Source: Nemertoderma westbladi (lineage: Eukaryota > Animalia > Xenacoelomorpha). From it: a DNA stretch of 64,000 nucleotides. The DNA lies in assembly GCA_032718475.1 (NCBI GenBank), contig JAUCBJ010006660.1:41379-105378 (forward strand). The letters are read 5' to 3'. Shown piece after piece: positions 802 to 61,412 of the stretch. The notes below the pieces were generated by a model. That model worked only from the letters and a program-made list of their open reading frames with translations. It searched no databases and was not told the DNA's origin. The translations under genes and the position numbers were made by a program. The stretch's first letter is position 1. Each line of letters starts with the position of its first letter.

Positions 802-2889
802 TCATCCAAAGCGAAATAGTTTTCTTTCCAAATTACTGAATTCCGTTTGAGGTCCTAATCCGTGAAACTCACGAAGGGTCCGCCTTGGAAAGTATTTCTG
901 TCGATGTCTGAGAACACAACATTGATGAGTGAAGATTTCTAAGATCGAAAGTAAAGGAATCCAGATGAGAGTAAATAAAGTCAATAATAGACATATAATA
1001 CATACATATGGCGGAGTTTCGCATTGTTCAACATTTTGAGTCTCAGTATTGAAACATGTGTATGTTGTACCTTCAGTGAAAGAGTAATGTATACCCAATG
1101 TTGCAAGAATAATATAAACAGGAACAGTAAGATAAACCATTGAGAATGATATAAAGATATTTATTTTAAATCCAACCATCGTCTCAAAATCGCTTATAAT
1201 CCGATGTATACCAACACTGTATAAAACTGATGTGTAAGAAATGCATCCAATCACCATCATACACATATTATACATAAATTTCTCAAATATTTCTTTAAGA
1301 AATGGCCCAATGTTTAGTGTAAATACCAAACTGAAAAGGAAAAGAAAAAGGCATATAAGACAAACACGATAAATCTCTGGAATTCTTAGAGTAAACTTGT
1401 GATCTTCGAGAGCATTTATAATACTTTGAATAAATCCAAACATTGAATCAATTCCTAATAATATTAATGTTACAAACAGAAGAAGTGACCACGATGAAGC
1501 ATGATCCGATATTTCTAAAATGACCCTGGTCATTGTAACAAAAGCCAAAGTAGGTCCATTTAGGTCACTCATTTTTTCAAGTGCGCCTTTTATACAATGG
1601 CTATGTTGTTCACCTTCTTCTGGGATTCCGTGGCATTCCTCTTCATAAGCATAGTGTCCAGCCATACTAAATACAACTACAGAAGCCATTATTGAAGTTA
1701 ACAGATCAACACCACATAATAAAATAGCATCTCGAAAAAAATTATTCTGTCTAGGTTGCGTTGCTCCCATCAATGTATGAAAACCAAGCCCGAGTCCCAG
1801 TGTGAATGCTACTTGCACTCCCGCAGCTTTCCACACTTTTAATGAGAATATCTCTTCTAAATTTCCAGGTGCGAAAGCATATTGCAACCCTTCATAACTT
1901 CCTGACATATCAACCGATAATATGAGTAAGCAAAACATGGTGAGATAAGGAATTGTAGCTGTGAAATACACAACCCTGGTAGACCCCATAGCTCCATGTG
2001 TCTGACTAGTAACGACCATTAACCAAGTTATGACAGTTGCTATAACGATGGGGTTACTAAAATATATAGATTCACTGATATTTTTTGGTAGGCTTAAGGT
2101 TTCATTGTACCAAAAGAAACTACCTGCCCCAAGTTCTTCACACGTTTGATTTTTGAACTCAATAACTAAATTGTTTCCCCCTAACATATTACATGAACTC
2201 CAAGGTAATTTATTTCTAAACGTCATAGCTGAGTAAAATATACAATAGGATATATCGATACAATAGGAAATAACGAGGAAGCCACAAAGAAGTACTTGGG
2301 AAACACCAATTCCAGCTAACCTTGGATGCAATGTTTCATATACATTCCACGGTCCTTGTCTCGTGAGTTGTCCAATACCTAACTCAAATGTTAGCACTGG
2401 TAGACCCACTATAAGAAGTAAAATTAAATAAGGTATGAGAAATACTCCACCGCCATTTTCCACCATCCTCTTTGGAAAGTACAAAATATTTCCCATACCG
2501 ACAACAAATCCGATGCAGCTTACAATATATTGAAACTTAGAATCCCAAATCGATTCCATTGTGTCTTCCTCTGGTCTCCAATGTTTAATTTTATAAAATG
2601 TATCTTTGTTCTTTGCAAATCCAAAGATTCTACGGTCCTCGACTTTTTTAAATTCACCAGTTTTCATACCATGTTCGAAAGTATCTGTTCGAGTATGATT
2701 TAGAATGAAGGATTTTCTTAATGTATGACGGAAGTTTTGCACTGATGTATTGCAGGAATAGAAACTAGTTTCCACTGACGAAACATCGATAGGTTCTTGT
2801 TCTTCTAACTGAAACTCTCGCAACGAATTCGCAGATTTCAAGCTAATTTCTTCACTTTCCATATCCTTCCCCCCAATTTTACTCTCCAT
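802..2889 (-). CDS. SLC6 / neurotransmitter:sodium symporter family transporter, 695 aa, intronless, divergent
   Basis: WDSKFQYIVSCIGFVVGMGN..FP..NGGGVFLIPY, GLPVLTFELGIGQ, LPWSSC, VVYFTATIPY, VWKAAGVQ, GPTLAFV and LGIDSMFG match NSS TM1-TM8 motifs; about 12 hydrophobic segments. Confidence 0.93.
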   Translation of the reverse strand: MESKIGGKDMESEEISLKSANSLREFQLEEQEPIDVSSVETSFYSCNTSVQNFRHTLRKSFILNHTRTDTFEHGMKTGEFKKVEDRRIFGFAKNKDTFYKIKHWRPEEDTMESIWDSKFQYIVSCIGFVVGMGNILYFPKRMVENGGGVFLIPYLILLLIVGLPVLTFELGIGQLTRQGPWNVYETLHPRLAGIGVSQVLLCGFLVISYCIDISYCIFYSAMTFRNKLPWSSCNMLGGNNLVIEFKNQTCEELGAGSFFWYNETLSLPKNISESIYFSNPIVIATVITWLMVVTSQTHGAMGSTRVVYFTATIPYLTMFCLLILSVDMSGSYEGLQYAFAPGNLEEIFSLKVWKAAGVQVAFTLGLGLGFHTLMGATQPRQNNFFRDAILLCGVDLLTSIMASVVVFSMAGHYAYEEECHGIPEEGEQHSHCIKGALEKMSDLNGPTLAFVTMTRVILEISDHASSWSLLLFVTLILLGIDSMFGFIQSIINALEDHKFTLRIPEIYRVCLICLFLFLFSLVFTLNIGPFLKEIFEKFMYNMCMMVIGCISYTSVLYSVGIHRIISDFETMVGFKINIFISFSMVYLTVPVYIILATLGIHYSFTEGTTYTCFNTETQNVEQCETPPYVCIICLLLTLFTLIWIPLLSILEIFTHQCCVLRHRQKYFPRRTLREFHGLGPQTEFSNLERKLFRFG

Positions 2890-3189
2890 TATAGCAATCT
2901 ATTGCTCAATCACCTTTTCGTTGCAAATTTTTTGTTCGCGTATTGTCTCTATGCAGTTTTGGCAAATACAGGCTTTGGGTGCATTTTTTTACTCAATACT
3001 CTTAATTTTGGTAGTAGATAATTTTGGCTACACTACTTTTAAAGAATATTAGTTAATAAAGAAAATAATTTTAAGTTTTAATTAATATTTCCCCTCCCCT
3101 CCCCCTCTTGCTCAAATTTTCAAATTGTTGTTTCTTTATTTCGTCTAGAGCAAATTTTAATGGGGATTACAAACCTGAAAAAGGCTTAA

Positions 3190-5681: not shown

Positions 5682-5864
5682 GTAAATGGGTACCCAATGT
5701 GTATTAATTCCATTTACTTGCACTTGCACTGTTGTAACCCATGTACTGCAATATTATCCCATAATTCTAAATAAAATGCTCACGCAAAATACAATATTTT
5801 TAATCTCGATATTTTTCAAAACTCGATATTTTTACTCTCGATATCTTTCAACACTCGATATTTT

Positions 5865-7408
5865 CGCCACAACTCCCTATCACCCATGTCATTTGCTAGA
5901 TCATCTGCATCTTCAAGGCCAGTGTCCTTTAAGATGCGTCTCAAGAAAGTCATGGGCTGTGCACTATGCTTATTCACTCCATGAGGCTGCCAAAGTACAA
6001 GATTATGCACTGGCTGGTCCTCACGGCGAAAGCAATGTCCTGCAAAGCGGAGGCGATTTTGTTCTAGTGTCAAGCTTGGGGGAACCAATGAGACACCTCC
6101 AATGTTATATAGTGTCTGGTTGGAGATGTGTGCATTGAACTTGACACAATGAACCCGGCGTAGCATTCTTGTGAATGTGCCGTCCAGAGATTTGGTGTCC
6201 TCAGCAGTTAGAGCCCAGCATGGACTCCCATAGAGGAGTACTGGAACGACTGCTGCTCTAAATAACCGGACCTTAAGTTTCCGATTAATTCTCGGTGACT
6301 TCCAAATCCTGGAAAGCCTATTCAAGGCTGCCCATGCCTTTCCCTCACGTATTCGAAGGTCCTCACCTGACTTCCGGATCCATGATCCCAGGTAACAGAA
6401 GTCATCCACATGCTCAAGCATACCATCTTTTGAGCTTATGCTCATCCGATCAGAGACTTGCTGAGGACTTTCAAAGTTAACTGTCAAAATTTTGGTCTTT
6501 CTGGAGTTAATAAAAAGACCAACACTAGAAGCAGCATGTTCTAATGAGCTGAGGAGCCGTTGGGCTCCCTCTAGTGATTCTGAGAGTACTCCTAAGTCAT
6601 CAGCAAAGTCTAGATCAGTTAGGTACTTGGCAGGATTTCCTCGACTTCAAGAGCCAGTAGGTGGAGTTATCATCACCCCATCATCATTATTATGATCTAA
6701 AGACATGCGTAGAACATAGTCAACAACAATTATGAACAAGAATGGTGCAAGGGTGTCTCCCTGGAGGACGTCCCATAACACTTCAAATGGTTCTGTGTCA
6801 CCGTCAACAGTAGACACAAATGTTGTCGAACCATCGTATACTGATCTGATTGCTGCAATAATTTCATCAGGAATCCCATATAATGAAAGTATGCTGAACA
6901 TACGTGAGCGAGAGACTGAATCAAAGGCCTTGAAGAAGTCAACAAAGATAACAGCCAGATGCCTGTCTTTCTTTTTTTATAACTCTTCAATTATCCTTCT
7001 AAGTGCCAAAATGGGCTCCATGGTCCCACGACCTTTATGGAACCCATTCTGATTTCCACGGAGCAGTCTCTCAATGGGATCCCTGATGTGATTTAATAGA
7101 ATTCTATTGTATAGCTTTGCAGCAATCGAGATCAATGAGATTCCCCGAAAAGAACCATAGTGTTAGGTTGCCCTTCTTGGGAATGGCACCAATTTTTTTG
7201 TTTTCATTTCTTGTGGGACTCTTGTTGTACGGTACATGTCTACTATGATGGGATAGATGAGCTTTAAACACTCAGGTATTTTAAAGACCTCAGGGGGAAC
7301 ACCATCTATTCCACTGGCACGATTGGTCTTAATGCTCTTTGCAGCAGCCTTCACTTCTGCAAAGGTGATATCACCAATGGGAATATCTGGGAGTACAGAC
7401 TCAGACAC
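5865..7408 (-). mobile_element. RTE-like LINE, degenerate RT region, truncated at both ends
   Basis: Frameshifted pieces RASGIDGVPPE, FVDFFKAFDS, LQGDTLAPFLF, DLDFADD, FCYLGS, RLRFAGHC. Confidence 0.88.
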
Positions 7409-9456: not shown

Positions 9457-10684
9457 TGTAAAAGCTTTTGTGGGATGTAACTGGCCCTTTTGCTTTGCAA
9501 TCCAGTTCCCTCCCAGGCGCTGGAATACTCTAAAAAGCTCTCTAACGCGAATGATGCAAAGCGACCGGCTGATTGGCTGATTTGTTATACGAGGGGCTCT
9601 TTGCTATGTTCTATCGGCCAACCAGAGCTATAGCAGCAGAGTATGCAACCAGGGCAACCGAGCGGAGTGACTCATTTTGTGTGTTGGCCAAGGGCTGCAA
9701 AATTCCTGATATTTCGGCATTTAGATATTCGTGGAACCTGTGGAATCTGGTGTTCTGCCAATGAGAGCTATCCCTCTCTGTGTAAAAAGATACCTGCAAC
9801 GGTGTTAGAGTCAGAGAGTGTTTTTGTTACTGTTGTGTTGTTTCTATCTAGGCCAAGAACACCGGCTCTGGAGTCAATTGTTTCAGACTTTAGAAGAAAC
9901 ATTAGTAGGCTTAGATTATAGAACGTATAACTGTTATCTCGCCATAATTATCAACTAACCAAACAATCATATCATATCTTAACCTACCGTCTTAATGCTT
10001 TTACTGTTGTTATTATTTGTATTAGTTGGTTGAATATTATTTGGAGAACATCTATAAAGAACCCAAATTTCCCAATTTTCTTGATACACTACAGGTTAGA
10101 GAGACAGGATACATATAACAATTGCGACTTATGTTATCGTGGTTTGTAGTGAATCTAATGCTATTTGATAGGCACTACATGAGTCAATTGCTGTTCTCTT
10201 TATATATGATAAAATTCATTGACGGTCGGCAGATTAGTGTGCAGTATTGTGCGTTATCGGTAGTGTGCATGATTGTGGCTGATAACTAAGCATTTCCTAA
10301 AGAATGCGCCTCATACGTGAATCATAAGCCTTACCGACTTACCGTTGTGTTTAGTATAAGTCATATCTCTGTTTACCTAGATAGAGCGCCACGTCCTAAA
10401 GGAACTGTTTATATTTCCCGAAAGTGAATAATATTGGTCAGAAATTATTTATTAACGATCAATCGAATAATACAGTAAGCTTACACTGCAATAACAATCT
10501 AAGCCCTCAGAATCCAGTCTCCCGGGTATATCCAGCGGGTGAATGGACGCGCACTAGGCTGGCTTCTGCTAATGTTGTGTTTATTGGTATTAAATATTTG
10601 TCAATTTCTAAAGTCTATTTATAAACCAAAAGACATATAAATTTTGGCAGGTTAAACTGCTAAAGGTCTTCAAAAGCGCGTACA
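9457..10684 (+). repeat. A1 5' LTR
   Basis: tgtaaaagcttttg...aaaagcgcgtaca; direct repeat of 20571-21798. Confidence 0.95.
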
Positions 10685-10695
10685 ATAACAGTTAT
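10685..10695 (+). promoter_or_regulatory. Putative self-complementary primer-binding site of A1 (pairs with 9927-9937)
   Basis: ataacagttat directly follows the LTR, with no TGG; exact reverse complement of ataactgttat in the LTR. Confidence 0.6.
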
Positions 10696-10753
10696 TGTCT
10701 TTATTGCAGTAAGCAATAAAGTTGAAAGTACCGGTCGACCGGTAAACCTAAAC

Positions 10754-12971: not shown

Positions 12972-15900
12972 ATGTCAGACGCAACCAAATCACTGTCAGA
13001 TAGTCTCTTAGAAAGTGTTAGAATGAGTATTAGACTTAGACAGCGTATTAAAAGGATCTGTGACCAAGATCCAAGTATAGAACATCCTAGATCCAAGTCT
13101 AAGTCACATACTATTGCAAGAAAGGCCATCCCTACAGTAGTAGTGTCAGACCCTAGGCTAGTAGAACAGCGTAGGTCTATCATTGGCACTCGGGCCCAAG
13201 TCAAGCGGGATCAAGAAGCAGCTATCAAACAGCAGCAACATCCTAGCCAAGAACCTAGTTCTCAGCGGCCCGATAGCTCCAGTAGTTCGGATACTGTTGA
13301 GCGGACGCCCGAATGCGGAGCGAAGATGGCGGATACGGTTTATGATGAACGGCCAACCTATGAAGAATCAACCGACGCCACTTCTTCTCAAGTGGAAAGC
13401 GAATTGGAAAGCGAAGTGGAAAGCGAATTAACAGCAGCAGAGAAACCGCGAACTAGAGACGCCATTGACATCTATCTGTCAGACTATCAGCGATTCCTAG
13501 GAGACGAAGAGTTGAGGAGATGACTGTCTGGACTTCGCCCTAATAGTGAAGGAACCAAGCTTGTGTTGGACGCAATCGATGCGGAAATGTTAGCTGCGAA
13601 CCAAGCTAAATTTGATGAACGACTCCGCCTCATTAGAGTCCAAGAAGAACAAGTAAAGAAAAAACGGATAGAGGACAGAAAGGCAGTGGCAGTGGAAGCG
13701 GCAGAAGCAAAAGCGGCAGCGGCAGTGGAAGCAGCCAAAGCAGAGGCAGCAAAGGCAGTGGCAGAAGCAGAACGGAGAGCATCTCAGGAGACTACCCAAC
13801 TGGAGTTGGAAAATCTGCAAGAGACGCAAGACTGCATAAATAAACAGTTAACTGCTAATCAAATGCAGATGATGAGTCGATCTACTCCCAAACGCCAGGA
13901 ATACACATCATCGGGGGAAGGCGAGACTACAGATCCTGAAGGCGGAGGAAATAGATCTCGTCTAAGCAGGCGTAGAAAAACATCTCACCGTCACAAATTG
14001 CCTGATTTGCCCCCAGCGGTTAGAAGACAACTAGCTAGCACAGACTTAGGTAGTACAGAACCCACAGACCAAATTATTGAGGTCAAAAGACTCCCTACTA
14101 TAGTTGATGAGCCTGAAATAATTAGGCCTGTCGTTCCCAAAGCCACTCCTGTGCTAGAGACCCCTATACTTCCAGAGCTTAACTCTAAATTCCCTCTACA
14201 CAGTACTACACTGCCTGTACCCGGTAGAACAGTCCATACGAATATCCCTGTCTTGGACACTGAGAGAGAAATCAAAGATTTGTCTCCCGTCGTCCAGCGT
14301 CGACCCGCTACAATGTTAGCGACTCCCGCTTCGGCGGTCGAGTGGGTAGAGGAGGGACGGCGGGGGATGAATCTCCTGCTCGGGCAGATGCAGGAGACTG
14401 TCCACCAACTCAAGGGAACATTAAGGGAAAGTAGGGTAGAATTGCAAGAAGTGCAGCAAAGTATCGCGCTAGAACGCGACAACTTAGTCAATATACAAAA
14501 GGGTATACCAATACCCCCTGTAACATTGTGTCAACCTGTTAGGTCTGAAGTATTACATGCGCAAGGTGTGGAGCCTACACGCATCTATACTGCTAGTGAA
14601 GTAGAAACTCCTATAGCAAACCCTATTAAGGGTGATTATAAACCTGTTGTTAATGATATTCCCTATAGACCTGATAATAATCCGATAAATTTATATACCG
14701 ATAATTCGATATTAAATAATACGATGGCCCAAGAAAGCTTTACGCGTCAGATGGCTAGAACAGAAGCCCGCCAAGCAGTCAAAGTGGGAGAGATCGTCAA
14801 ATTCAATGGAGATGAGATGAAATGGTTACCTTTCAATGAATATTACAAAGATAGCATACAGAACTCTGTACTATCTAATGGAGAGAAACTTAGATTCCTC
14901 ATCAAGTGCTTGGAAGGACCTCCCAAGTTAATGGCGTTAAAGTTCATTGGACATCCAGATGGATTAAGACAAGTTTGGGATACATTAAACATCAGGTATG
15001 GTAACAAGGATAACATAGCTAAGTATTTGTATGCAAAATTAGTAGCCCCCCGAAACTTTCTTAGTAGCGGGATTATAGAGTTTTCCGATGAGATTCAGGA
15101 GATCTGTAGACAATTGGACTGGTTAGGTAAGTCTCATGAATATCAGAGTTCCATGGTTATTGGAGCCGTAGTCTCTACTTTACCAAAGGGTGGAGTATGT
15201 ACACGCTGGGACAAGAAAGTGTTGTATATGAATGAGCAGCAACGACGAGGCCCTACCATGGCTGATCTCATGTCTTTCTTAGATAGTGAAGTAAAATTAC
15301 AACTCATAAAGCAGTCCAGAGAGAAAACATCGGAAAATAAGGTAAGTGAGAAACCCGTTTCTAGGAGAAGGGTAATACCAGTGTGTTATACTGACGACGG
15401 CGAAAGCCAAGCTTCTCAAGAAGAGGACAGCGGGAAAGACACAGCAAAATCTTACTATGACAACAAGACCTATAAAGACGTAAGTAAATATAAGTCTCGA
15501 ACCAGTGACAGGAGAGAACAGGTAACAACAACTCCTCCTACGTCTCCTAAGAGAATTCACGGAAGAAAGCCCGAAGAAAGAACTAGAGTGCATCAAGTTA
15601 CCCAAGGTAAAGTGAGTAACATCAAACCAAAATGTGCGCTGTGCGACGGGCCCCACCGTTTGAGTGTGTGTGCTGAATTCCTAAAGAAATCCCTGGTAGA
15701 CAGACGTGAAGTCATGTGGGATAAGCGGTTATGCTATAATTGCCTCAGACAAGGACACCAACGGCGAACCTGTTACTCCGACGTAAGGTGTGCAAAGTGC
15801 GGTGCGAAACATCACATCTTGTTACACAGTGAATTCGAACGAAACAACCCGAGTCAGGTAAGTGAGCCCGAACTACATGTCCAATTCAGTGATGTAAATG

Positions 15901-17066
15901 ACACTGATCAAGAGTCTGAGATGGAAGGATTCTATACTGACGAATTCTCCGACGCCAACGAATCCTGTTACCTAATCAATACCGCGGTGTATCGAGCACT
16001 TACTTACGAAAAGGACACCGACAATGAGTTCCCCCCAACTACCTTTGACAGACAACCATCTTGGAAAGCTCCAACTTCCAACGTAGGAATCAGAGAATTT
16101 CCTGTAGTGCAGGTAAGAGTTCACGGTCCTACCAAAAGTTACATAGTGAACGCCCTCCTTGACTCCGGCAGCACAGGAACATTCATCGATCAAGAACTAG
16201 CCGAAGATATCTTTGCTGGACAACCCAAATTCCAAACTAAGTTGAATATGTCCGGAATTATGCAGGTTTGGAAATCTACCATAACGGCAGATTACTATGT
16301 AGGTGCGTTGTCCACCCCCCAGGATAAATTAGGAGCACAAAGTATAAGGTCAGTAAAAATGGTGGCTATAAAGAACTTCGCTACTACCCAAGTAGAACCT
16401 TATAACTGGGACGAGGACGAGAGCATCCAACAGCTTAAGATACCTCGATTCCAGACAGATTATCCTGGAGTGCAAATACTCATCGGCCAAAACGCGCATG
16501 AGGCGCTCGAGACATTGGAGAAACGGCCTGCTCAACCGCAGCCACTACAAACCTATGCGGTAAGAACTAGAGTAGGTTGGTACTTCACTGGCCCTTCCCG
16601 TAGAACTCTCAAAGAGAGATTACCTCAACAACAGGTATACCAAGTAAAGGAATGGGAAGTGGAGAGCAGTGATGTGGACGATCCAACTGAGGGAACACCA
16701 TACTCCTCAGATAATGACGATATTAACTCCAATGTAGATCAATGGAGACATTGCCTTGGGACGATTAATCCAGCCGACATCGCTTCCAGAGGAGCAACTC
16801 CTCAAGAACTGATAGATACTCCAGGCTGGTTAGGTGGATCCGACTTCTTAAGTAAAGAAGAAGAAGAATGGCCTCCTCATCTTACCACGGCGGAGATTAG
16901 ACAGGCCAAGGGAGCGGAGAAAGTAACACAACAACTCAATCGCCCAGCTGGTCGTTTATGTTTACTGGAAAGAGACCGAAAACTGTCCGGAAACTATGGA
17001 AGGCAAGATACTCTTCCTACGACCACTTCCCTAATCCGACAAATATCTAGGGACTCCATAACGTAA
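12972..17066 (+). CDS. gag: A1 Gag-protease polyprotein ending in an RNase H C-terminal remnant; one in-frame TGA at 13521-13523
   Basis: DUF1759-like KFNGDEMKWLPF..EKLRFLIKCLEG; three BEL Cys motifs CALCDGPHRLSVC, CYNCLRQGHQRRTC, CAKCGAKHHILLH; protease ALLDSGS..ILIGQN..AVRTRVGW; QWRH..NPADIASRG. The TGA aligns with CGG in A2. Confidence 0.9.
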
Positions 17067-18695
17067 TAACATATGGAGTGGGCGTGTGACTATATCATTT
17101 TATATTTGTTTTTATTTTATATTTATGTATGTATTATTATGTAATTTTATTATAATCGTTTCCTTTAATTTTATTTAGTAGAATGTTATTTTAGTGATTA
17201 TTTAGTAGATTAGTGCAATATATTAGTGTTTATTACGTACGTAATTACTTATAATATATATTTAGTGCGACGGCGAGAAATAATTATTTTTTCTCTTTCC
17301 TTACTGTCCGTATCATATTATAAATACGTGACTACAGTAAGATGAAATGTCCGTACTTATTAAAGTACAATAAAGCCACTACTATATTAAAGTATTATTG
17401 GTAGGCAGAGTATTAGGAATGCAAAGTTCAGATCCTCGTGTCTCGGCTAAACCAAGCTCTGGGTAGACCTTGGAAACGACTTGCCTCTTCACACTGACAT
17501 TGCTTCGTGCGATATTGCTCTTCTACTTTATATTAAATAATACATATAGTAGCGTGATGTCCCTATAACAGTAGCGTAAAACGCAAATAAATCTGTTAAA
17601 CCTTTTGACCATCTGTAATTCTAGTCGATTAAGATATCGCGGCACCCACCGATATACTTGAAAGACAAATTCTAGAATCAGTGGTTAACGTCCCCAGACA
17701 AGTTCTGGAATAAATCGGTGCCCATCTTAAATATTAATTTAATATTTATTAAAATCTGTAAAATTCAGATCCTTTAAAATTTCTAGTCAATTAAGATATC
17801 GCAGCACTTACCGATACTCTTAAAAGACAATTTTATAGAATTAAAGATCCTAGGTCCCCAGACATGCTCTGGAATAAAATTGTGTCAATTTTACCATCAA
17901 ATAATAAAATTCACGGGAATAAATTTAAATTCATATTTTTAATGAATTTGATAAATTGTCATTTTATACAATTTATAACATTCCCAAAATTCCATTAATT
18001 AATAGATCATGGGAGCGGAGATTCATCCTATTGAGTGTATTAGAGTGCGAGAATCTCCAACTTAGTCAATAGCCGATAAAAATTAATAAAATCATGCATA
18101 AAGAGGATATTGACAATTAAAGAATTACTATTAAATAGCATTCCAGATCTGTATGCATGAGAATTACCCTAATTCTACCGCTAGCTTTCCATAATGTCAC
18201 CATAGCAACACCCACGCTAGAATTAGAAGCAAGTTAAAAGAACAATAGAAAGCTTGTCCCATTGCATAGCATAGAGAATACATAGCACACTGTTAGTATC
18301 CAAGGATACACAATAATAATGTGACATTCTGGAAGGCACTGACTAATGGACAAATGGCCCGTATGTGTACAATTGGTGACAGTTGTGTGGAATTTGTGCG
18401 TTTGTAGGTGAATGTTACTGCTAAGGTGTGTTTACAGTAGCTAGTCACAATTGTGAAAGTAGCCCAACTCTCCTATAGAAAGAACCTAAAGTGGATTCAA
18501 GCCTTTGGGACGGACAGTGGAGTGACTTGTGCCGGTTATCGTTGTCGTGCTGTTGCTACATGTTGGCGTAAACACCGCGACGACGGTACATCGGCGCTGA
18601 GAATCCCACTGTCCGGGGGCAACGAGAGGTAGGCAGCGACGCCCGCAAGCCTAAACCTAAACTCATTTTGATATTAATAAGCTCAGATAGCAGAT

Positions 18696-19678
18696 ATGAC
18701 GGAGTTGATAGAAGATGATCTTGGTATCAGGGAGCGATATACTCTACCTTTACAAGCATTTGTGGATAGCTTGATACGCGGTGAAGCCGATCCAACCATT
18801 ACGGAGGACGGTGGTCGTTATATCGAACCGCCGATGTCCCGAGAGCAACTTACGCGTGAATTGGACTATCGAAAATTCACCGCTCGCTATACGCATCGTA
18901 ATGGTACGTATATGGACTTCTTAACTACCGGCCATCCTATCGACTTGCATGATACGGACGATGTAGACACCGAAAGGGAAATGGTTCTATTTAAATATCA
19001 TACCCAGCGGAGTCGTAACGATAAACCGAGAATAGAACACGTAACAGACTGGAAAGAGAAAACGTTGAAGAACCGGATAAATGCATCGACTTCAACGACT
19101 ACATGGAATTTTTGAGAGAAACTTATCTCAACATCTCCAGTCAGCAGAACCTCGAGACTCTATATCCTCAAGGTATACATCATGACCCCATGGTAGAACT
19201 CAAACGGCTCTATCTCACTATGATGTATCTTACCGCCGATCGTCCACTACCTGTTATCCCGGATAGTTTTGAACAAATGGAAGAATATTGCAAAACTGGA
19301 GAACGATCACCCGCGTTTCCTCTACAGGACGTACGTCTTTGGTATTGTTGTGATGAGTGCCCTAGACCCAACCAACAAACTGAAAGACATAAACATCCGC
19401 GGAGACGTTGCGCTAAACACAGTTTTACGCGTTATACTTACGGGAGTTTCGAGCGAAACCTGTTCGACGTATCACCTACGATCGCTCGTCTTAAACGATC
19501 ACTAAATAAACCCATGATCAGAGTTCCGGAATACTCGGTCAGGCCTCCTCATTCCCCAGTGAGACCTCGGACTCTTGGTCCTGGCAGTATCACTGATCCT
19601 CCCGAACTATATTCGCTGTTCCTATTTCCACGAAAAAACGGCGATGGAAATTTATTGTGCATATTGCAGACTCAATAA
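18696..19678 (+). pseudogene. A1 accessory ORF2, frameshifted by a 13-nt deletion relative to A2
   Basis: ORFs 18696-19115 and 19103-19678 together match intact 52575-53570; aaaattctatttg is missing near 19041. Confidence 0.8.
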
Positions 19679-20492
19679 CTTGCACATTTTTGCGGTTTGC
19701 CCTCAATTTATGACTCAATGTCACCATTGTCAACTAAAGGGACACGCCAGTTTCGATTGCCCTTTTAATCACGATTTGGAAAGCGTAGATGAAATGATTA
19801 CACTACGTTACATCAGAGCTTGGGAAGCGAACGCTGATTTACATTGTGATTCGCGCCATCGTTATTATCCTGGACGCGCTTACGAAGGAGTTTATGCGTT
19901 CCATCCTTATCTATTCGCTTCTGTCGAACAGAAATCACGCTTATCAAGTTACGAACTACTGAAGCGCGTCGGAGAATGTATTTCAACCAAATTTGTACGC
20001 AAATTTCTCAGGAGTGTTAATCCTAGCGACATTCATTCCTATAACTTAATCAATTTTATCCGTCAAGATCCGGACTATGGAGACTTATTTGTTAACTCAC
20101 ACCCCGAGTTACAGGAAGTATATCGACGGCCTTACGAATACCGAGCCCGCGAACGCGAGTTGGAAAGAACCATTAAACCCAGGAAGTTTCTAACTGCCTA
20201 TGGTCCACCTACGGCTCTCGTTCAGACCACTAGTAAAGGACCCGTAAGAGCGGCTGTCCTAAAACGCGCTCTAAAGGCCGTTAGACCCCTCTCCCCCGAC
20301 GTTGATGTCAACCAACCCGGCACTTCGACCGGCGGATACACCGACCATAATCCTACATCCTCTGATGCAATCATATTGCACCCTTCACCCAGGAGTTATA
20401 GCCCTCCTTGTAAAGTGGCTCGCCCCAAAGAGAAAAAGACTCTGGCTAGCTTTAAAAAGCTGCGTAAACACCCTCCGCGTAAGAAAGACTAA
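19644..20492 (+). CDS. A1 accessory ORF3, 282 aa: tandem CCHC zinc knuckles and basic C-terminus, function unknown
   Basis: ATG in strong context gcgATGg; CAYCRLNNLHIFAVC and CHHCQLKGHASFDC; KKLRKHPPRKKD; intact in both A copies. Confidence 0.75.
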   Translation: MEIYCAYCRLNNLHIFAVCPQFMTQCHHCQLKGHASFDCPFNHDLESVDEMITLRYIRAWEANADLHCDSRHRYYPGRAYEGVYAFHPYLFASVEQKSRLSSYELLKRVGECISTKFVRKFLRSVNPSDIHSYNLINFIRQDPDYGDLFVNSHPELQEVYRRPYEYRARERELERTIKPRKFLTAYGPPTALVQTTSKGPVRAAVLKRALKAVRPLSPDVDVNQPGTSTGGYTDHNPTSSDAIILHPSPRSYSPPCKVARPKEKKTLASFKKLRKHPPRKKD

Positions 20493-20570: not shown

Positions 20571-21798
20571 TGTAAAAGCTTTTGTGGGATGTAACTGGCC
20601 CTTTTGCTTTGCAATCCAGTTCCCTCCCAGGCGCTGGAATACTCTAAAAAGCTCTCTAACGCGAATGATGCAAAGCGACCGGCTGATTGGCTGATTTGTT
20701 ATACGAGGGGCTCTTTGCTATGTTCTATCGGCCAACCAGAGCTATAGCAGCAGAGTATGCAACCAGGGCAACCGAGCGGAGTGACTCATTTTGTGTGTTG
20801 GCCAAGGGCTGCAAAATTCCTGATAGTTCGGCATTTAGATATTCGTGGAACCTGTGGAATCTGGTGTTCTGCCAATGAGAGCTATTCCTCTCTGTGTAAA
20901 AAGATACCTGCAACGGTGTTAGAGTCAGAGAGTGTTTTTGTTACTGTTGTGTTGTTTCTATCTAGGCCAAGAACACCGGCTCTGGAGTCAATTGTTTCAG
21001 ACTTTAGAAGAAACATTAGTAGGCTTAGATTATAGAACGTATAACTGTTATCTCGCCATAATTATCAACTAACCAAACAATCATATCATATCTTAACCTA
21101 CCGTCTTAATGCTTTTACTGTTGTTATTATTTGTATTAGTTGGTTGAATATTATTTGGAGAACATCTATAAAGAACCCAAATTTCCCAATTTTCTTGATA
21201 CACTACAGGTTAGAGAGACAGGATACATATAACAATTGCGACTTATGTTATCGTGGTTTGTAGTGAATCTAATGCTATTTGATAGGCACTACATGAGTCA
21301 ATTGCTGTTCTCTTTATATATGATAAAATTCATTAACGGTCGGCAGATTAGTGTGCAGTATTGTGCGTTATCGGTAGTGTGCATGATTGTGGCTGATAAC
21401 TAAGCATTTCCTAAAGAATGCGCCTCATACGTGAATCATAAGCCTTACCGACTTACCGTTGTGTTTAGTATAAGTCATATCTCTGTTTACCTAGATAGAG
21501 CGCCACGTCCTAAAGGAACTGTTAATATTTCCCGAAAGTGAATAATATTGGTCAGAAATTATTTATTAACGATCAATCGAATAATACAGTAAGCTTACAC
21601 TGCAATAACAATCTAAGCCCTCAGAATCCAGTCTCCCGGGTATATCCAGCGGGTGAATGGACGCGCACTAGGCTGGCTTCTGCTAATGTTGTGTTTATTG
21701 GTATTAAATATTTGTCAATTTCTAAAGTCTATTTATAAACCAAAAGACATATAAATTTTGGCAGGTTAAACTGCTAAAGGTCTTCAAAAGCGCGTACA
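20571..21798 (+). repeat. A1 3' LTR
   Basis: Direct repeat of 9457-10684, followed by TSD ggggt. Confidence 0.95.
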
Positions 21799-22757
21799 GG
21801 GGTGATGATAACTCCACCTACTGGCTCCAGAAGTCGAGGAAATCCTGCCAAGTACCTAACTGATCTAGACTTTGCTGATGACTTAGAAGTACTCTCAGAA
21901 TCACTAGAGGGAGCCCAACGGCTCCTCAGCTCATTAGAACGGGCTGCTTCTAGTGTTGGTCTTTTTATTAACTCCAGAAAGACCAAAATTTTGACAGTTA
22001 ACTTTGAAAGTCATCAGCAAGTCTCTGATCGGATGAGCATAAGCTCAAAGGATGGTATGCTTGAGCATGTGGACGACTTCTGTTACCTGGGATCATGGAT
22101 CCGGAAGTCAGGTGAGGACCTTCGAATACATAAGGGAAAGGCATGGGCAGCCTTGAATAGGCTCTCCAGGATTTGGAAGTCACCGAGAATTAATCGGAAA
22201 CTTAAGGTCCGATTATTTAGAGCAGCAGTAGTTCCAGTACTCCTCTATGGGAGTCCATGCTGGGCTCTAACTGCTGAGGACACCAAATCTCTGGATGGAA
22301 CATTCACAAGAATGCCACGCCGGGTTCATTGTGTCAAGTACAATGCACACATCTCCAACCAGACACTATATAACATTGGAGGTGTCTCATTGGTTCCCCC
22401 AAGCTTGACACTAGAACAAAATCGCCTCCGCTTTGCAGGACATTGCTTTCGCCGTGAGGACCAGCCAGTACATCATCTTGTACTTTGGCAGCCTCATGGA
22501 GTGAATTAGCATGGTGGACAGCCCATGACTTTCTTGAGACGCATCTTAAAGGACACTGGCCTTGAAGATGCGGATGATCTAGCAAATGTCATGGGTGATA
22601 GGGAGTTGTGGCGGCGCAATTTTGTCGACGAGCCGGCACAGCATTCTTAAATATGCAGCTGCAATGCAGCATGCCGATCCTAGTAGTTGTAGTAGTAGTA
22701 GTAGATATTCAGGCTTTAAAACATAAGATTTAAAAAGGCTAGAGTTCCGTATAGAAC

Positions 22758-31499: not shown

Positions 31500-33700
31500 A
31501 CACATAAATTTAAAAGCACAATAAATATTTACCAACCGGTGTCGAACTCGTCCTTGTACTAAATATTCATGGAGGGACTTTCGCGAATAATTAGCGTTTT
31601 CTCAGTTAACTTACGGTGTACCAGTCTTAACAATGTTTACGGATGCGGATTTTAAAGGGTTGCGGGGAGTTGGTGTCGTGTGGGTGCTTATCTTTGAATT
31701 GTTGACCTACTGTGCTGTTCTTGAATTTATTTTATTACGTATGGAGTTGCGGTATTTTGCTATTCGTTCTCTCACTGGTCCTACCGTCTCACCAATATAA
31801 TCTTCTTTATATTTATTGCTTCTATGTGGTAAACTACGTTTTTGGCTGTACATATCTTGATGCCGTGATGGCATGTGTAACAGATTGTTGATACTCTTGT
31901 TGCTGGACACTTAAGTTTACTAGTGTTGGACCTAATTAGTATGTTACGGAGTTTTGGTCCGGTAGTGGATGCAACCCGCGTGGCATCGGCGAATGGCGAC
32001 TCTCGTGTGGCTGTGTTAACTTTGCGCAGGATGTTTTCGTCAAGATAAGGAAGTACGAGTGGAAACTTACGCGTGTTGTGTGTGTTTACATGTGTGTTTG
32101 GTGTTTTGGTTGTCGTAACTTTCTTTTTTTAATTTATCAATGACCGGGGGTGGGTAGTCATTATTAATTAAATTGGTTCTAACTTTACTAATGCTCCGTG
32201 TTTTAGTTTGGGGGGTGGAGCGATTCCTAATAGCTCGCTTGATGGCGCTACGAGCAATGTTGTTAATTATAGATCGAGGGTGCCTACTATTGTAGTTTAA
32301 TTAAGGATATACCTGCACTAGCTGGTTTCTGATACAGTTCGAACTCAATATAACCCTGGTTATTAACTGTAGTTAAAACATCAAGGAAGGCTAAACTGGA
32401 ATATGAATATTCCATTGTAAATTTAAGCGACGGGTGGCACGTGTTTAGGTAATCTAAAAATGCATTCAGTTCATCCTCTCCATGCCGCCAGATGGCCCAT
32501 CCGTCGTCATAGAAACGGTACCAACATTGAGCTGTTAAACGGTAATTCTCTAAGTACTCAGTTTCCTTAACGTGAACGTATACTATAGCTATCGGGGCCG
32601 CTGATCTGTCCCCCATACCTAAACCCGACCGCTGTTTGTAAAACTTATTATTAAACTGAAAGTAACTATTTTCTAACGTCAGTTGGAGTAAACCATATAA
32701 TTCTGTTATTTCTAGTCCAAACATGTTTATCTCCTTAACGTGTTGTGACAGAAATCCTGTAACGACCTCGACTTCTTCTTCCACAGGTATATTTGTATAC
32801 ATGGCCACTATATCAGTACTGAATATAATATCTCCAGGTTCCATCGGATCTAATGTACGAACCCGAGAGATAAAATCGGCCGTATTTTTTGAACGTTCTG
32901 GAATGAATTGTAAGAGTTGTTGCATGATTTGACGGACAAACCATGCCGGTTTCTCCGCCGCAGACCCAGTTCTCGCAGAGATTGGTCGCATCGGATTATT
33001 AGGTTTATGCGTTTTAGGATTGCAATAAAGCTGGGGTGGACGGGGTTTAGTGGTGAGCATACCGTGTATAACTGTTGGCGGTTGAGTGCGGTCTAATAGA
33101 TTCCTAATACCGGCCTTTATTCGCCCAGAATCCTTGTTGGTGGGGTCTCGCGTGAGTTCCTCATAAGCGTTTGTGTCACTTAGTATATCCGTGTTTACCT
33201 TATCGATATAGGTGTTGTAATCGAACACCGCCAGTCCACCGCTTTTATCAGTTTTCTTAATTACAATGTCATTATCTTTATGTAGGATCTTTAGAGCGTT
33301 CTGTTCTTCCGAGGTTAGGTTCGCTGTTGATCGGTTCGATTTGAGTGCGAAGTTTTGGTAAATCCCTAGGATGCGTTCTTGTAAATTCTCTAATTCTTGC
33401 TCCATAAGTGGTGGTCCTGGAGGGGCTTTAGGTCTCATCGTATCTGGAAATGGGATTCTCGGGAGTGATGTAGTTCTATGGTTGGGTGTTGTACTGCTAG
33501 TTGGTGCTGTTACATGTTGTACAGACGTTGTCGTAGTGGCGGGTTGGACCGCCGTCGCCGGAGTGGCGGGTTGGTCAGCTGTCGCTGGAGTGGCGTGTTG
33601 TACAGCTGGCGCCGGAGTGGCGGGATGGACCCGTCCGTTACTTTTATTATGTTCTAGAATCTTTTACTTACTGTTACCATAATTTGTCAGATTTACTTCT
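31500..33700 (-). mobile_element. Penelope-like element: RT plus degenerate GIY-YIG
   Basis: ORF 32287-33438 IVIKKTDKSG, PKTHKPNNPMRPI, STDIVAMYTNIP, YKQRSGLGMG, WYRFYDD, LAFLDV; DYIGET..RERI in 31707-31910. Confidence 0.88.
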
Positions 33701-36024: not shown

Positions 36025-37250
36025 TGTAAAAGCTTTTGTGGGATGTAACTGGTCCTTTAGCTTTGCAATCCAGTTCCCCCCCCCAGGCGCTGGAATACTC
36101 TAAAAAGCTCTCTAACTCGAATGATGCAAAGCGACCGGCTGATTGGCTGATTTGTTATACGAGGGGCTCTTTGCTATGTTCTATCGGCCAACCAGAGCTA
36201 TAGCAGCAGAGTATGCAACTAGGGCAACCGAGCGGAGTGACTCATTTTGTGTGTTGGCCAAGGGCTGCAAAAATCCTGATAGTTCGGCATTTAGATATTC
36301 GTGGAACCTGTGGAATCTGGTGTTCTGCCAATGAGAGCTATCCCTCTCTGTGTAAAAAGATACCTGCAACGGTGTTAGAGTCAGAGAGTGTTTTTGTTAC
36401 TGTTGTGTTGTTTCTATCTAGGCCAGGAACACCGGCTCTAGAGTCAATTCGTTTCAGACTTTAGAAGAAACATTAGTAGGCTTAGATTATAGAGCGTATA
36501 ACTGTTATCGGCTCAATCGGCACATACATTGTCATATCATATCTTAACCTACCGTCTTAATGCTTTTACTGTTGTTATTATTTTGTATCAGTTGGTTGAA
36601 TATTATTTGGAGAACATCTATAAAGAACCCAAATTTCCCAATTTTCTTGATACACTACAGGTTAGAGAGACAGGTTACATATAGCGATTGCGACTTATAT
36701 TATCGTGGTTTGTAGTGAGTTTAATGCTATTTGATAGGCACTACATGAGTCAATTGCTGTTCTCTTTATGTATGATAAAATTCATTGACGGTCGGCAGAT
36801 TAGTGTGCAGTATTGTGTGTTACCGGTAGTGTGCATGATTGTGGCTGATAACTAAGCATTTCCTAAAGAATGCGCCTCATACGTGAATCATAAGCCTTAC
36901 CGACTTACCGTTGTGTTTAGTATAAGTCATATCTCTGTTTACCTAGATAGAGCGCCACGTCCTAAAGGAACTGTTAATATTTCCCGAAAGTGAATAATAT
37001 TGGTCAGAAATTATTTATTAACGATCAATCGAATAATACAGTAAGCTTACACTGCAATAACAATCTAAGCCCTCCGAATCCAGTCTCCCGGGTATATCCA
37101 GCGGGTGAATGGACGCGCACTAGGCTGGCTTCGGCTAATGTTGTGTTTATTGGTATTAAATACTTGTCATTTTCTAAAGTCTATTTATAAACCAAAAGAC
37201 ATATAAATTTTGGCAGGTTAAACTGCTAAAGGTCTTCAAAAGCGCGTACA
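36025..37250 (+). repeat. A2 5' LTR
   Basis: tgtaaaagc...gcgcgtaca, followed by ataacagttat as in A1. Confidence 0.95.
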
Positions 37251-37319
37251 ATAACAGTTATTGTCTTTATTGCAGTAAGCAATAAAGTTGAAAGTACCGG
37301 TCGACCGGTAAACCTGAAC

Positions 37320-42919: not shown

Positions 42920-44939
42920 TGTGACGGGATCTACGGATCCCGGTTTATCCGTTGGGTTTTCTATCCACGCGTCCCCGCCGTTGTGTGAAAGGTAAAATAG
43001 TTCTGGTGTCCGGTTATATGTATAAGGTATAATAGTCTGATATATATATAGTATAGTATGGCACAGTCACCGGTAGATAAGTATGATGGCGGTAGCGGAC
43101 AGTGATAGAAGTCACCGTTCCACCCTACTGAACTAACTGAGTAAACTGAATGAATATGATTACAGGTTACTGGTTATATTGCACGGTGGCCTTATTGCTA
43201 CTCAATCGATGCCTTTCCCCCCTCTGATTGGTTAATACCCCTGTTGGCACCCTTTGGAGTGTTTCCCTTCACTCCCTGTGTTCTCTCTCGGTTAGGGGTT
43301 TGGCCCCTGACCCCTATTGTGTGTGTCTCCTTTGGGGCCTATTGTCCCCGTTTACTGGGCTGACACGAGGTTGATTGGTAATCAACCTCGTGCTCCCAAT
43401 ATTGCTTTATGGCTCACTCTATGGGTTTGTGTTAGCGGAATTGGATAAGCTAACACTCCCCCCCATGCTATCTTCCCGGTGAGAAGATAGCATCCAACCA
43501 AAGTGCGCTACAATTCCGCTGGATCCCGATCTAACATCGGGTGTGGGGTGGGTATATTTTTTCGGAGTCGGCTTTCCAGGCCGCTCCCTATGGGTATGAT
43601 GTCACTACCCTCTGGCGTCTCGTGTCGGGCCGATCGTGCGCTTCTCTCACACAATTTTTGTTTCCCCAACACTCTCACCACTCTACTCCAACTCTCGCAT
43701 ACTCCCGGACCTCCTCGTCCCACACTCTTCCTCTCACTTCTCCTCCCCCACACTTGAATTGCGCCCACGCTCTCTTCGCACTCCGCACTATTACTCCATC
43801 CCTCCTTGACTACCTTATCCCTTCTGACGAATCTCACCCCCCCTCCGTGCCGTCGCACTCAGGAAATGTGAAATCGTCTGGCGTCTTGTCCCTAGTGCCA
43901 TAGTCACTTAGCCCCCCAGTCCCAGTAGCTAATTGAGAAAGGTTGTATGACTATAGTACTTACACCACTATCTCCGCACTCCGCACTATCACCTCTCCAC
44001 TCTCTTGTCACTCCCTAAGGCTTTAATCTCTAATGCTACCCCTGTGCTATCATACTATCTACCTACTGCTTACTAACTCTAACTATCTAACTAACTCTGC
44101 TAACTACTAACTCTTACTACTTCTAGCTCTAACTGAGAGCCTCTAACTTTCTACTGACTCTAACTCTCTACTAAGTCTAACTAACTCCTACTAACTTTCT
44201 ACTTCTACTAACTCTACTTGACTCCTCTGAGTCTACCAACTCTGCTAACTAGCTCTACTAACTCTACTCCACTAGCTCTGCTAACTCTACTCCACTAGCT
44301 CTGCTAACTCTACTAACTAGCTCTACTAACTCTACTCCACTCTTCTAACTACGTGGCGCTTGCGGTGCCCACAACCACTCTACTATATGGCACCCTATGT
44401 GCCCTCTCTGCTCTACTCTACTACCTGGCACCCTATGTGCCCTCTCTACTACACTACTACCTCTCTACCTCTACTACCTGGCACCCTATGTGCCCTCTCT
44501 ACTCTTCTACTACCTGGCACCCAATGTGCCCGTCTCTACTGCTCTACTCCCCCTTTACGTCTCATCGCCTACACGTGACGCTCTGAGTGCCGGCAGAGTG
44601 GGTACGTTAATTATGTGAACTACTACTGACTCTACTAACTCTACTAACTCTCTTCTAACTCTACTAACTCTTTTTGTGTCCGGCACCTCTTGTGCCCGGC
44701 ACCTTCTAACTCTACTAACTCTTTTTGTGCCCGGCACCTCTTGTGCCCGGCACCTTCTAACTCTACTAACCTCCTTTTGTGCCCGGCACCTCTTGTGCCC
44801 GGCACCCACCCTAATTAACATACCCTGCTCTTACATCAAACACCTCATCACGCCCGTGCCCCACTAAGTTCAGCGCATTCCCTACTAACTCTAACTACGT
44901 GGCGCTTCCGGTGCCCACAACCCTTCTACTGCTACTACT

Positions 44940-49423: not shown

Positions 49424-50086
49424 CGTCTTTGGTGTCTGGCAGCCACAGTCTGTCAGTTGGTTCGATCTAGTTCTATCACTGTCAGACTGTTAGGGCAGCT
49501 GCTAGGATTCTATCTCTGTCAGGGCAGCTGGGCGGATCTGATTCTATCACTGTGACGGGATCTACGGATCCCGGTTTATCCGTTGGGTTTTCTATCCACG
49601 CGTCCCCGCCGTTGTGTGAAAGGTAAAATAGTTCTGGTGTCCGGTTATATGTATAAGGTATAATAGTCTGATATATATATAGTATAGTATGGCACAGTCA
49701 CCGGTAGATAAGTATGATGGCGGTAGCGGACGGTGATAGAAGTCACCGTTCCACCCTACTGAACTAACTGAGTAAACTGAATGAATATGATTACAGGTTA
49801 CTGGTTATATTGCACAGTGGCCTTATTGCTACTCAATCGATGCCTTTCCCCCCTCTGATTGGTTAATACCCCTGTTGGCACCCTTTGGAGTGTTTCCCTT
49901 CACTCCCTGTGTTCTCTCTCGGTTAGGGGTTTGGCCCCTGACCCCTATTGTGTGTGTCTCCTTTGGGGCCTATTGTCCCCGTTTACTGGGCTGACACGAG
50001 GTTGATTGGTAATCAACCTCGTGCTCCCAATATTGCTTTATGGCTCACTCTATGGGTTAGTGTTAGCGGAATTGGATAAGCTAACA

Positions 50087-50945: not shown

Positions 50946-52574
50946 TAACATATGGAGTGGGCGTGTGACTATATCATTTTATATTTGTTTTTATTTTATA
51001 TTTATGTATGTATTATTATGTAATTTTATTATAATCGTTTCCTTTAATTTTATTTAGTAGAATGTTATTTTAGTGATTATTTAGTAGATTAGTGCAATAT
51101 ATTAGTGTTTATTACGTACGTAATTACTTATAATATATTTAGTGCGACGGCGAGAAATAATTATTTTTTCTCTTTCCTTACTGTCCATATCATATTATAA
51201 ATACGTGACTACAGTAAGATGAAATGTCCGTACTTATTAAAGTACAATAAAGCTCCTACTATACTTAAGTATTATTGGTAGGCAGAGTATTAGGAATGCA
51301 AAGTTCAGATCCTCGTGTCTCGGCTAAACCAAGCTCTGGGTAGACCTTGGAAACGACTTGCCTCTTCACACTGACATTGCTTCGTGCGATATTGCTCTTC
51401 TACGTTATATTAAATAATACATATAGTAGCGTGATGTCCCTATAACAGTAGCGTAAAACGCAAATAAATCTGTTAAACCTTTTGACCATCTGTAATTCTA
51501 GTCGATTAAGATATCGCGGCACCCACCGATATACTTGAAAGACAAATTCTAGAATCAGTGGTTAACGTCCCCAGACAAGTTCTGGAATAAATCGGTGCCC
51601 ATCTTAAATATTAATTTAATATTTATTAAAATCTGTAAAATTCAGATCCTTTAAAATTTCTAGTCAATTAAGATATCGCAGCACTTACCGATACTCTTAA
51701 AGGACAATTTTATAGAATTAAGGATCCTCAGTCCCCAGACATGCTCTGGAATAAAAATTGTGTCAATTTTAACATCAAATAATAAAATTCACAGGAATAA
51801 ATTTAAATTCATATTTTAAATGAATTTATTAAACTGTCATTTTTATACAATTTATAACATTCCCAAAATTCCATTAATTAATAGATCATGGGAGCGGAGA
51901 TTCATCCTATTGAGTGTATTAGAGTGCGAGAATCTCCAACATATAGTCAATAGCCGATAAAATTAATAAAATCATGCATAAAGAGGATATTGACAATTAA
52001 AGAATTACTATTAAATAGCATTCCAGATCTGTATGCATGAGAATTACCCTAATTCTACCGCTAGCTTTCCATAATGTCACCATAGCAACACCCACGCTAG
52101 AATTAGAAGCAAGTTAAAAGAACAATAGAAAGCTTGTCCCATTGCATAGCATAGAGAATACATAGCACACTGTTAGTATCCAAGGATACACAATAATAAC
52201 GTGACATTCTGGAAGGCACTGACTAACGGACAAATGGCTTGTATGTGTACAATTGGTGACAGTTGTGTGGAATTTGTGCGTTTACAGGTGAATGTTACTG
52301 CTAAAGTATGTTTACAGTAGCTAGTCGCAATTGTGAAAGTAGCCCAACTCTCCTATAGAAAGAACCTAAAGTGGATTCAAGCCTTTGGGACGGACAGTGG
52401 AGTGACTTGTGCCGGTTATCGTTGTCGTGCTGTTGCTACATGTTGGCGTAAACACCGCGACGACGATACATCGGCGCTGAGAATCCCACTGTCCGGGGGC
52501 AAAGAAGGTAGGCAGCGACGCCCGCTCGCCTAAACATAAACTCATTATAATATTAATCAACCCAAATAGCAGAT

Positions 52575-55690: not shown

Positions 55691-55695
55691 AGTCC

Positions 55696-56090
55696 ATTCC
55701 CACTATGATGGATACCTTCCGGACGTCCACTTCCGGTATCGAGAAATCGATCTCGTCCAGGAATCTGTATTGCTTGACCTCGATGTTAGTGGGTCGCCTG
55801 GCATTTATATTAATCGATTCTATAATCTGAATGGGGTCGATGGTCGCCCCATAGTTACATCCCGGTGCTATTGCTGATATCTCGCACCGTCCCGTCCTCA
55901 CCTCCAGGATCTCATCCGTGCTGGAGATAGTAGTTACCGCCATCCTGCTCGGCCTCGCCTGTAACCTTATATCCTCGGCCACCCAATTCTCCACCAATGT
56001 GAAGGCTGCTCCGCTGTCGACCAGCATCAACGTCGTAACTGATCAACCACTTTCTCCCATCACCCTCACCGGTACCACCCCGAGTAGTAC
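55696..56090 (-). pseudogene. Aspartic protease of element C, interrupted by A2
   Basis: LVDSGAAFTLV...VSIIVGMD; continues below 36024. Confidence 0.8.
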
Positions 56091-61371: not shown

Positions 61372-61381
61372 GTGTCCGTAG

Positions 61382-61412
<31 letters not shown>

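Follow-up and report, generated by a model that had tools for sequence, protein, structure and literature searches.

Self-complementary primer-binding positions in BEL/Pao-derived elements of Nemertoderma westbladi: candidates for Tf1-like self-priming

What primes reverse transcription in a BEL/Pao-type element whose 5' LTR is not followed by TGG? The ICTV profile of the Belpaoviridae describes priming by host tRNA at an 18-nt site for tRNA-Arg or tRNA-Gly (PMC8742986). The question arises from an element, A1, in a 64,000-nt stretch of Nemertoderma westbladi DNA (contig JAUCBJ010006660.1, positions 41,379 to 105,378 of the forward strand), which we call the window and whose own numbering we use throughout. 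A sequence-only reading of this DNA had claimed that the 11 nt following the A1 5' LTR have their exact reverse complement inside that LTR, and had proposed a self-priming BEL/Pao lineage.

The post-LTR site and its complement in four LTR families

Self-comparison of the window delimited two related elements, A1 and A2, with the following features.

9457-10684, forward strand: A1 5' LTR, 1,228 bp, TG...CA
20571-21798, forward strand: A1 3' LTR, with a motif copy at 21041-21051 and a purine-rich tract immediately 5'
36025-37250, forward strand: A2 5' LTR, with the motif at 36498-36508
54463-55690, forward strand: A2 3' LTR, with a motif copy at 54938-54948
9927-9937, forward strand: A1 LTR motif, the predicted self-primer, exact complement of the A1 post-LTR site
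10685-10695, forward strand: A1 primer-binding position, abutting the LTR and without TGG
37251-37261, forward strand: A2 primer-binding position, identical to that of A1
9939-9966, forward strand: block replaced between A1 and A2, beginning one base past the motif (A2 counterpart 36510-36531)

Both elements are flanked by 5-bp target duplications (GGGGT at A1, AGTCC at A2). Their 5' and 3' LTRs show 4 differences in A1 and 8 differing columns in A2, and because the LTRs of the two elements are 96% alike, we counted A1 and A2 once, as family A. The sequence ATAACAGTTAT occurs in the window at 10685 and 37251 only, both times abutting a 5' LTR that ends in CA, and ATAACTGTTAT at 9927, 21041, 36498 and 54938 only, which is one copy per family A LTR (n = 4). 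These occurrences bear out the complementarity claimed for A1 and the retention of both motifs in A2. The self-match is exactly 11 nt long, reaches its greatest length at offset 0 and does not run on into the LTR end, so that pairing does stop precisely at the terminal CA, as had been stated. The A2 LTR had also been said to diverge immediately after the motif; the divergence starts at the second base after it. A near-perfect palindrome of 17 bases spans the LTR end (10682-10698) and has the A primer site at its centre; a 9-bp hairpin (10699-10721) lies directly 3' of this palindrome.

As a control for chance, we found the 11-mer in 24 of 20,000 dinucleotide-shuffled LTRs. Across the window, the 1,228 nt before a position contain the complement of its 11-mer at 356 of 125,522 positions, and at 125 of 17,723 for AT-rich 11-mers. 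Taken alone, the self-complementarity of family A would be suggestive, not decisive.

Two further elements have the same layout with other letters.

49551-50086, reverse strand: element C 5' LTR, 536 bp, unrelated to the A LTR; C is nested in A2
42920-43455, reverse strand: element C 3' LTR, the pair of the C 5' LTR
49733-49741, reverse strand: element C LTR motif TTCTATCAC, exact complement of the C post-LTR site
49542-49550, reverse strand: element C primer-binding position GTGATAGAA, directly past the C 5' LTR
63504-64000, reverse strand: element D 5' LTR, truncated at the edge of the window, its end resembling the C LTR
63722-63731, reverse strand: element D LTR motif AGTTAATGAC, exact complement of the D post-LTR site
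63494-63503, reverse strand: element D primer-binding position GTCATTAACT, directly past the D LTR end at 63504

The end of the D LTR was set by its likeness to C, since no second D LTR lies within the window. The self-match covers 9 nt in C and 10 nt in D, each at offset 0, and is reached by 39 and 9 of 20,000 shuffles, respectively. The C and D sites differ at 4 of their first 9 positions, yet each pairs with its own LTR. The motif lies 182 nt from the LTR end in C and 218 nt in D; the LTR ends are identical and the motif flanks similar, and we judged the motifs homologous by eye from position and flanks because MAFFT left them unaligned. Despite their differing letters, the core duplexes of A, C and D have near-equal predicted energies (-10.1, -10.0 and -10.6 kcal/mol). 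TGG is absent within 30 nt past the LTR in A1, A2, C and D, in agreement with what had been noted for A1. The same reading had cautioned that the 11-mer is AT-rich and nearly palindromic; the caveat about the palindrome holds for family A only, the sites of B, C and D being non-palindromic.

The C LTR pair shows 3 differences, and the base right after the C motif (LTR position 355; 49732 versus 43101) is one of them. The elements are nested at 33988-64000, where D hosts A2 and a solo LTR of family B, and A2 hosts C. Element D also carries an extra stretch at about 59584-61400.

Family B allowed the post-LTR site to be predicted from the LTR.

56968-58151, reverse strand: family B solo LTR, 1,184 bp, with a 5-bp target duplication, sister of A
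57793-57803, reverse strand: family B motif AAAACTATTAA, in the position that corresponds by homology to the A motif

The B LTR is about 72% alike to the A LTR over the 3' half of B. Its motif differs from the A motif at positions 2, 7 and 11; the flanks upstream of the two motifs are clearly homologous by local comparison, and global MAFFT alignment missed this homology. We predicted the B post-LTR site from the B motif ahead of reading it out from contigs. The majority sequence at the loose ends of 14 contigs in run X1 agreed with the prediction at 10 of 11 positions (agreement 0.58; the contigs leaving the B LTR end are probably mixed with insertion flanks), and the matching positions include motif positions 2 and 7, both internal differences between B and A. 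For the solo copy, the sole mismatch is the pair adjoining the LTR, and one contig of run X2 has a B-type LTR with a pairing base at this LTR-adjacent position (joint 57670-57794). The 6 contigs of run X3 agreed with the prediction over the first 5 bases only, and the 2 contigs of run X5 showed no agreement with it. As motif and site were read from different molecules, the co-variation in B holds at the level of the family. The B LTR has 48 joints, of which 15 were displayed; 8 of these 15 have their end at 57791 or 57792, immediately 3' of the motif.

The complementarity ends at the LTR boundary and changes in a matched manner from family to family. On these alignments and read-outs, all four LTR families of the window (A-D) have the self-complementary layout, which we regard as a real, co-varying feature.

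BEL/Pao origin and relatives in metagenome contigs

The coding remains of the elements are as follows.

13524-17066, forward strand: A1 main reading frame, with gag (DUF1759, zinc knuckle), protease and a short RNase H end piece
55692-58683, reverse strand: element D gag and protease pieces, matching the BEL/Pao profile and interrupted by the B solo LTR

The A1 frame matched DUF1759 with an E value of 2.6e-12. Against a profile built from 20 relatives, it aligned over positions 96-620 (gag, protease; E 1e-67) and again over 1166-1230 (RNase H end), skipping from 620 to 1166. Reverse transcriptase and integrase are deleted in all copies in the window; the elements are non-autonomous, and no autonomous partner turned up. 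In element D, three gag/protease pieces matched the BEL/Pao profile (E 1e-7 to 6e-9), and DUF1759 was found with an E value of 8e-05, below the curated cut-off. Element C retains the zinc-knuckle part only (E 4e-06), and its DNA is about 70-77% like that of D. TG...CA LTRs and target-site duplications are present in A1, A2, C and the B solo LTR. All 22 relatives that we found are long polyproteins with PF05380, most of them also with PF03564 and reverse transcriptase. We take PF05380 to be the Pao peptidase family and polyproteins with PF05380 and PF03564 to mark BEL/Pao. Hence, the relatives are BEL/Pao-type polyproteins rather than Ty3/gypsy chromovirus proteins, and on this protein likeness the elements derive from BEL/Pao. 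The representatives searched include no close protein relative; the best matches were about 24-36% identical over local stretches. In gag-protease trees, A1 sat on a long, unreliable branch outside the self-complementary metagenome loci described below (D, too short, was left out of one tree), and we therefore assigned no clade name. The few differences between paired LTRs (4 in A1, 8 in A2, 3 in C) suggest that the elements, though defective, have been mobile in recent times and were served in trans by enzymes from elsewhere.

The window has further features but contains no tRNA gene. Frames with cysteine-histidine knuckle-like motifs and no Pfam family occur at 18681-20492 (forward strand) and also at 52557-54384; in family A they sit between the pol remains and the 3' LTR. 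A single long frame at 802-2898 (reverse strand) encodes a divergent SLC6 protein (sodium:neurotransmitter symporter; best matches about 31% identical). Other reverse-transcriptase remains lie at 32287-33663 and 5816-6646 (reverse strand) and at 21778-22509 (forward strand), and A1 is inserted beside one of them. They include LINE-like pieces with DUF6451 and a weak RVT_1 match, which looks Penelope-like.

We then turned to relatives in public data. We scanned metagenome contigs with an alignment of ten BEL/Pao-type proteins and obtained 79 loci, from which 54 were hand-picked for an LTR search: 9 had too little flank, 19 had no repeat and 26 had a repeat on both sides. LTR ends were readable in 9 of these 26 and guessed in 13, with 4 others (in L050 the 3' LTR copy stops at the contig end, and the L049 LTR ends in TA). 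With our first settings, which allowed offsets 0-3, 6 of the 9 loci with readable ends matched their own LTR over 10-15 bases, a result reached by 0-2 of 300 shuffles. The match was direct in L025; in L003, L017, L043, L050 and L052 it appeared only across a GT-AG intron of 71-175 bases. After matches at offset 4 had been sighted by eye, we widened the offsets to 0-6, and 8 of the 9 loci were then self-complementary. The two additions were L049, which matched across an intron (3 of 500 shuffles), and L068, whose direct match is weak (21 of 500 shuffles). The ninth locus, L056, has a tRNA-type TGG site. Among the loci with guessed ends, 3 of 12 were positive; a thirteenth without a purine tract was left out. 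As a cross control we compared 132 non-self pairs, of which 11 reached at least 9 bases, so the permissive offset test is noisy; every self-match topped its row, with one tie.

The self-match thus spans a GT-AG intron in six relatives (L003, L017, L043, L049, L050 and L052), which argues that the motif is transcribed in those elements. With L045 and L047, whose ends were guessed, the intron splitting the complement of the primer site measures 71-185 bases, and a primer built by splicing is likely in all eight, judging by these matches. In L025, the motif is whole in the 3' LTR and an acceptor-like sequence lies mid-motif on the 5' side; this contig holds either intron-free and intron-bearing forms or an assembly mix. 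In a tree of RT-RNase H, a branch supported at 0.998 separated 10 of 11 self-complementary loci from L043 and L056; with a query drawn from the self-complementary group and loci that may share hosts, this tree is no survey of BEL/Pao. A search of metagenome contigs with the LTR-end pattern gave no matches, and two scans of viral contigs found no relative.

A proposed self-priming route and its alternatives

We consider it probable that the motifs of families A-D are self-primers and that BEL/Pao-derived elements use Tf1-like self-priming. Support for the lineage proposed at the outset comes from elements C and D, from the B prediction and from intact BEL/Pao elements in public contigs. In Tf1, the RNA's initial 11 bases anneal to the primer site and RNase H cleaves after base 11, before base 12, according to the accessible parts of PMC7175516 and PMC5341516. 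A corresponding route in the window elements would have five steps. The transcript would begin upstream of the motif; its probable starts are initiator-like sites that precede the motif by 16-42 nt. Folding back, the motif would then pair with the primer-binding position (duplex energy about -10 kcal/mol), and the RNA would be cut just 3' of the motif, probably by RNase H by analogy to Tf1, freeing a 3' hydroxyl. Reverse transcriptase, supplied in trans since the window elements have none of their own, would copy U5 and R up to the cut and jump to the 3' R region. Errors at this jump would account for the variable block that starts right after the motif.

The features that bear on the start of the transcript and on the U5 end are these.

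9883-9888, forward strand: initiator-like TCAGAC, candidate transcription start, 42 nt upstream of the A1 motif and also present in B
10642-10665, forward strand: predicted hairpin near the U5 end, its stem kept in family B

In C and D, initiator-like words, called with a pattern that we take to be the initiator, precede the motif by 16-37 nt; in A and B, the distance is 42 nt. Pairing beyond the core was better than in shuffles for C, where only 4 of 2,000 reached it, and no better elsewhere (232, 109 and 1,607 of 2,000 in A1, A2 and D). We rejected an extended 5' duplex as a general feature, as C alone shows it against shuffles. The upstream initiator-like words and the upstream pairing in C suggest that the primer may carry a leader, and it is perhaps wrong to equate the motif with the RNA's first 11 nt, which is the arrangement in Tf1. 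In folds of whole transcripts, the helix had a probability of 0.85-0.86 in C when the start was placed 16-45 nt upstream and of 0.08 when it was placed at the motif. The value varied with the assumed start in D (0-0.92) and in an 800-nt A transcript (0-0.16). A local hairpin between the A site and the LTR end is possible, and we counted it against self-priming. Tf1-type self-priming has been described as a three-duplex 'pretzel' in the accessible part of bioRxiv 10.1101/2022.12.06.519325; a clear counterpart was not seen here, the leader-to-LTR duplex being matched in 17, 40 and 216 of 300 shuffles for A1, C and D, respectively. Hairpins at the U5 end are predicted in all four families, and those of C and D (49551-49580 and 63504-63530, reverse strand) are kept between the two.

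The A and B LTRs may also contain an intron, at 10095-10650 (forward strand) in A1, with a donor-like AG|GT at 10095 and an acceptor-like site before 10651. The homologous donor in the B solo LTR is a canonical GTAAG. Excision would shorten the distance from motif to site from 747 to about 190 nt, near the values of C (182) and D (218).

Alternatively, the primer could come from the 3' LTR copy, perhaps on the second RNA of a dimer. Transcription would then start just after the motif, the motif would be the end of U3, carried by the RNA near its 3' end alone, and the primer would be cut at the U3/R border. The variable block also fits the end of strong-stop DNA in this case, and the A motif has TATA-like words overlapping it or just 5' of it (TATAA at 9926). 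We nevertheless consider this origin unlikely, given the initiator-like words that precede the motif in A, C and D, the pairing of C further upstream than shuffles allow and the intron that splits the motif in six relatives, which requires an upstream exon.

It is also quite unlikely that a host RNA, such as a tRNA half or another small RNA, primes these elements and that the LTR motif is a switch covering the site or has a role in packaging or dimer formation. Such priming would demand a separate host RNA for each of the four sites in the window and of eight more in relatives, and in A, C and D the pairing halts at the LTR edge, as the 3' end of a primer would. Half-tRNA priming without TGG is, on the other hand, known in some copia lineages (PMC6317226, accessible part).

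We give very little credence to a spliced primer in family A, in which a donor after 9932, within the motif, would be joined to an acceptor at 10094/10095 and the variable block would be intronic. It would explain the variability of the block, the spliced joint would yield a 10-nt match at offset 1, and splice-built matches are the commonest form among relatives. However, the motif gives a longer match without splicing (11 nt at offset 0), and B lacks a GT at this place and has a site that follows the unspliced motif. Chance, helped by the near-palindromic A site and by the background of complements among AT-rich 11-mers (125 of 17,723 positions), is hardly credible and largely refuted by the read-out of the predicted B site and by C and D, given that three separate sites pass at 24, 39 and 9 of 20,000 and that B, C and D are non-palindromic.

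Returning to self-priming from the element's own RNA, we lean towards a wider reading, somewhat better than even: a broad animal branch of BEL/Pao may have swapped tRNA priming for a self-encoded RNA primer that is often spliced by the host from an LTR intron, and the four families of the window would be the intron-free form, with a primer that has a 5' leader and is cut inside R.

Implications and relation to known systems

If BEL/Pao elements self-prime, this mode would be present in all three LTR superfamilies, and the ICTV description of the Belpaoviridae as tRNA-primed would need correcting. It would also bear on whether hairpin priming or self-priming preceded tRNA priming, a question raised in the accessible part of PMC3601003. 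Such elements may escape control by tRNA-derived small RNAs, and annotation tools that require a tRNA site may miss them. Natural pairs of families give exact predicted cut positions, which makes the idea testable on host RNA.

We found no report of self-priming in BEL/Pao in the openly searchable literature, that is, outside subscription papers, Repbase, GyDB and supplements, and the accessible parts of PMC3118150, PMC554778, PMC8220671, PMC9094657 and PMC5443660 gave no word matches for BEL/Pao priming. The Tf1/sushi group is described as self-priming, and for Tcn1 and the copia TAR lineage the same has been predicted, as far as the accessible parts of PMC6317226, PMC4600332 and bioRxiv 10.1101/2022.12.06.519325 go.

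Cer7 of Caenorhabditis elegans is a BEL/Pao element for which a self-supplied tRNA-like primer has been proposed. That primer would be an internal tRNA mimic and not an LTR motif. Our literature search found no paper on the self-supplied tRNA-like primer of Cer7.

Compared with the Belpaoviridae (Semotivirus), the window elements agree in having LTRs, target duplications of 5 bp, a gag that contains DUF1759 and zinc knuckles, and a protease. Unlike the ICTV description, A1, A2, C and D have no 18-nt site for tRNA-Arg or tRNA-Gly, as TGG is missing, and unlike members of the family the window copies lack reverse transcriptase and integrase. With the TAR lineage of plant Ty1/copia and the Tcn1 clade they share that self-priming is predicted from sequence alone (PMC6317226, accessible part), but they belong to another superfamily and to other hosts. 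As in Tf1, Tf2, Tj1 and the Tf1/sushi group, a site abutting the 5' LTR is complementary to a short stretch of the LTR (PMC7175516, PMC4600332 and PMC5341516, in their accessible parts). Unlike Tf1/sushi elements, which are Ty3/gypsy chromoviruses, the window elements have BEL/Pao gag and protease. Their RNA may start 16-42 nt upstream of the motif, whereas the Tf1 primer is the first 11 nt of the RNA, and many of their BEL/Pao relatives, again unlike Tf1, have a motif split by an intron. The window elements would work like Tf1 in their proposed priming but fall outside the Tf1/sushi group.
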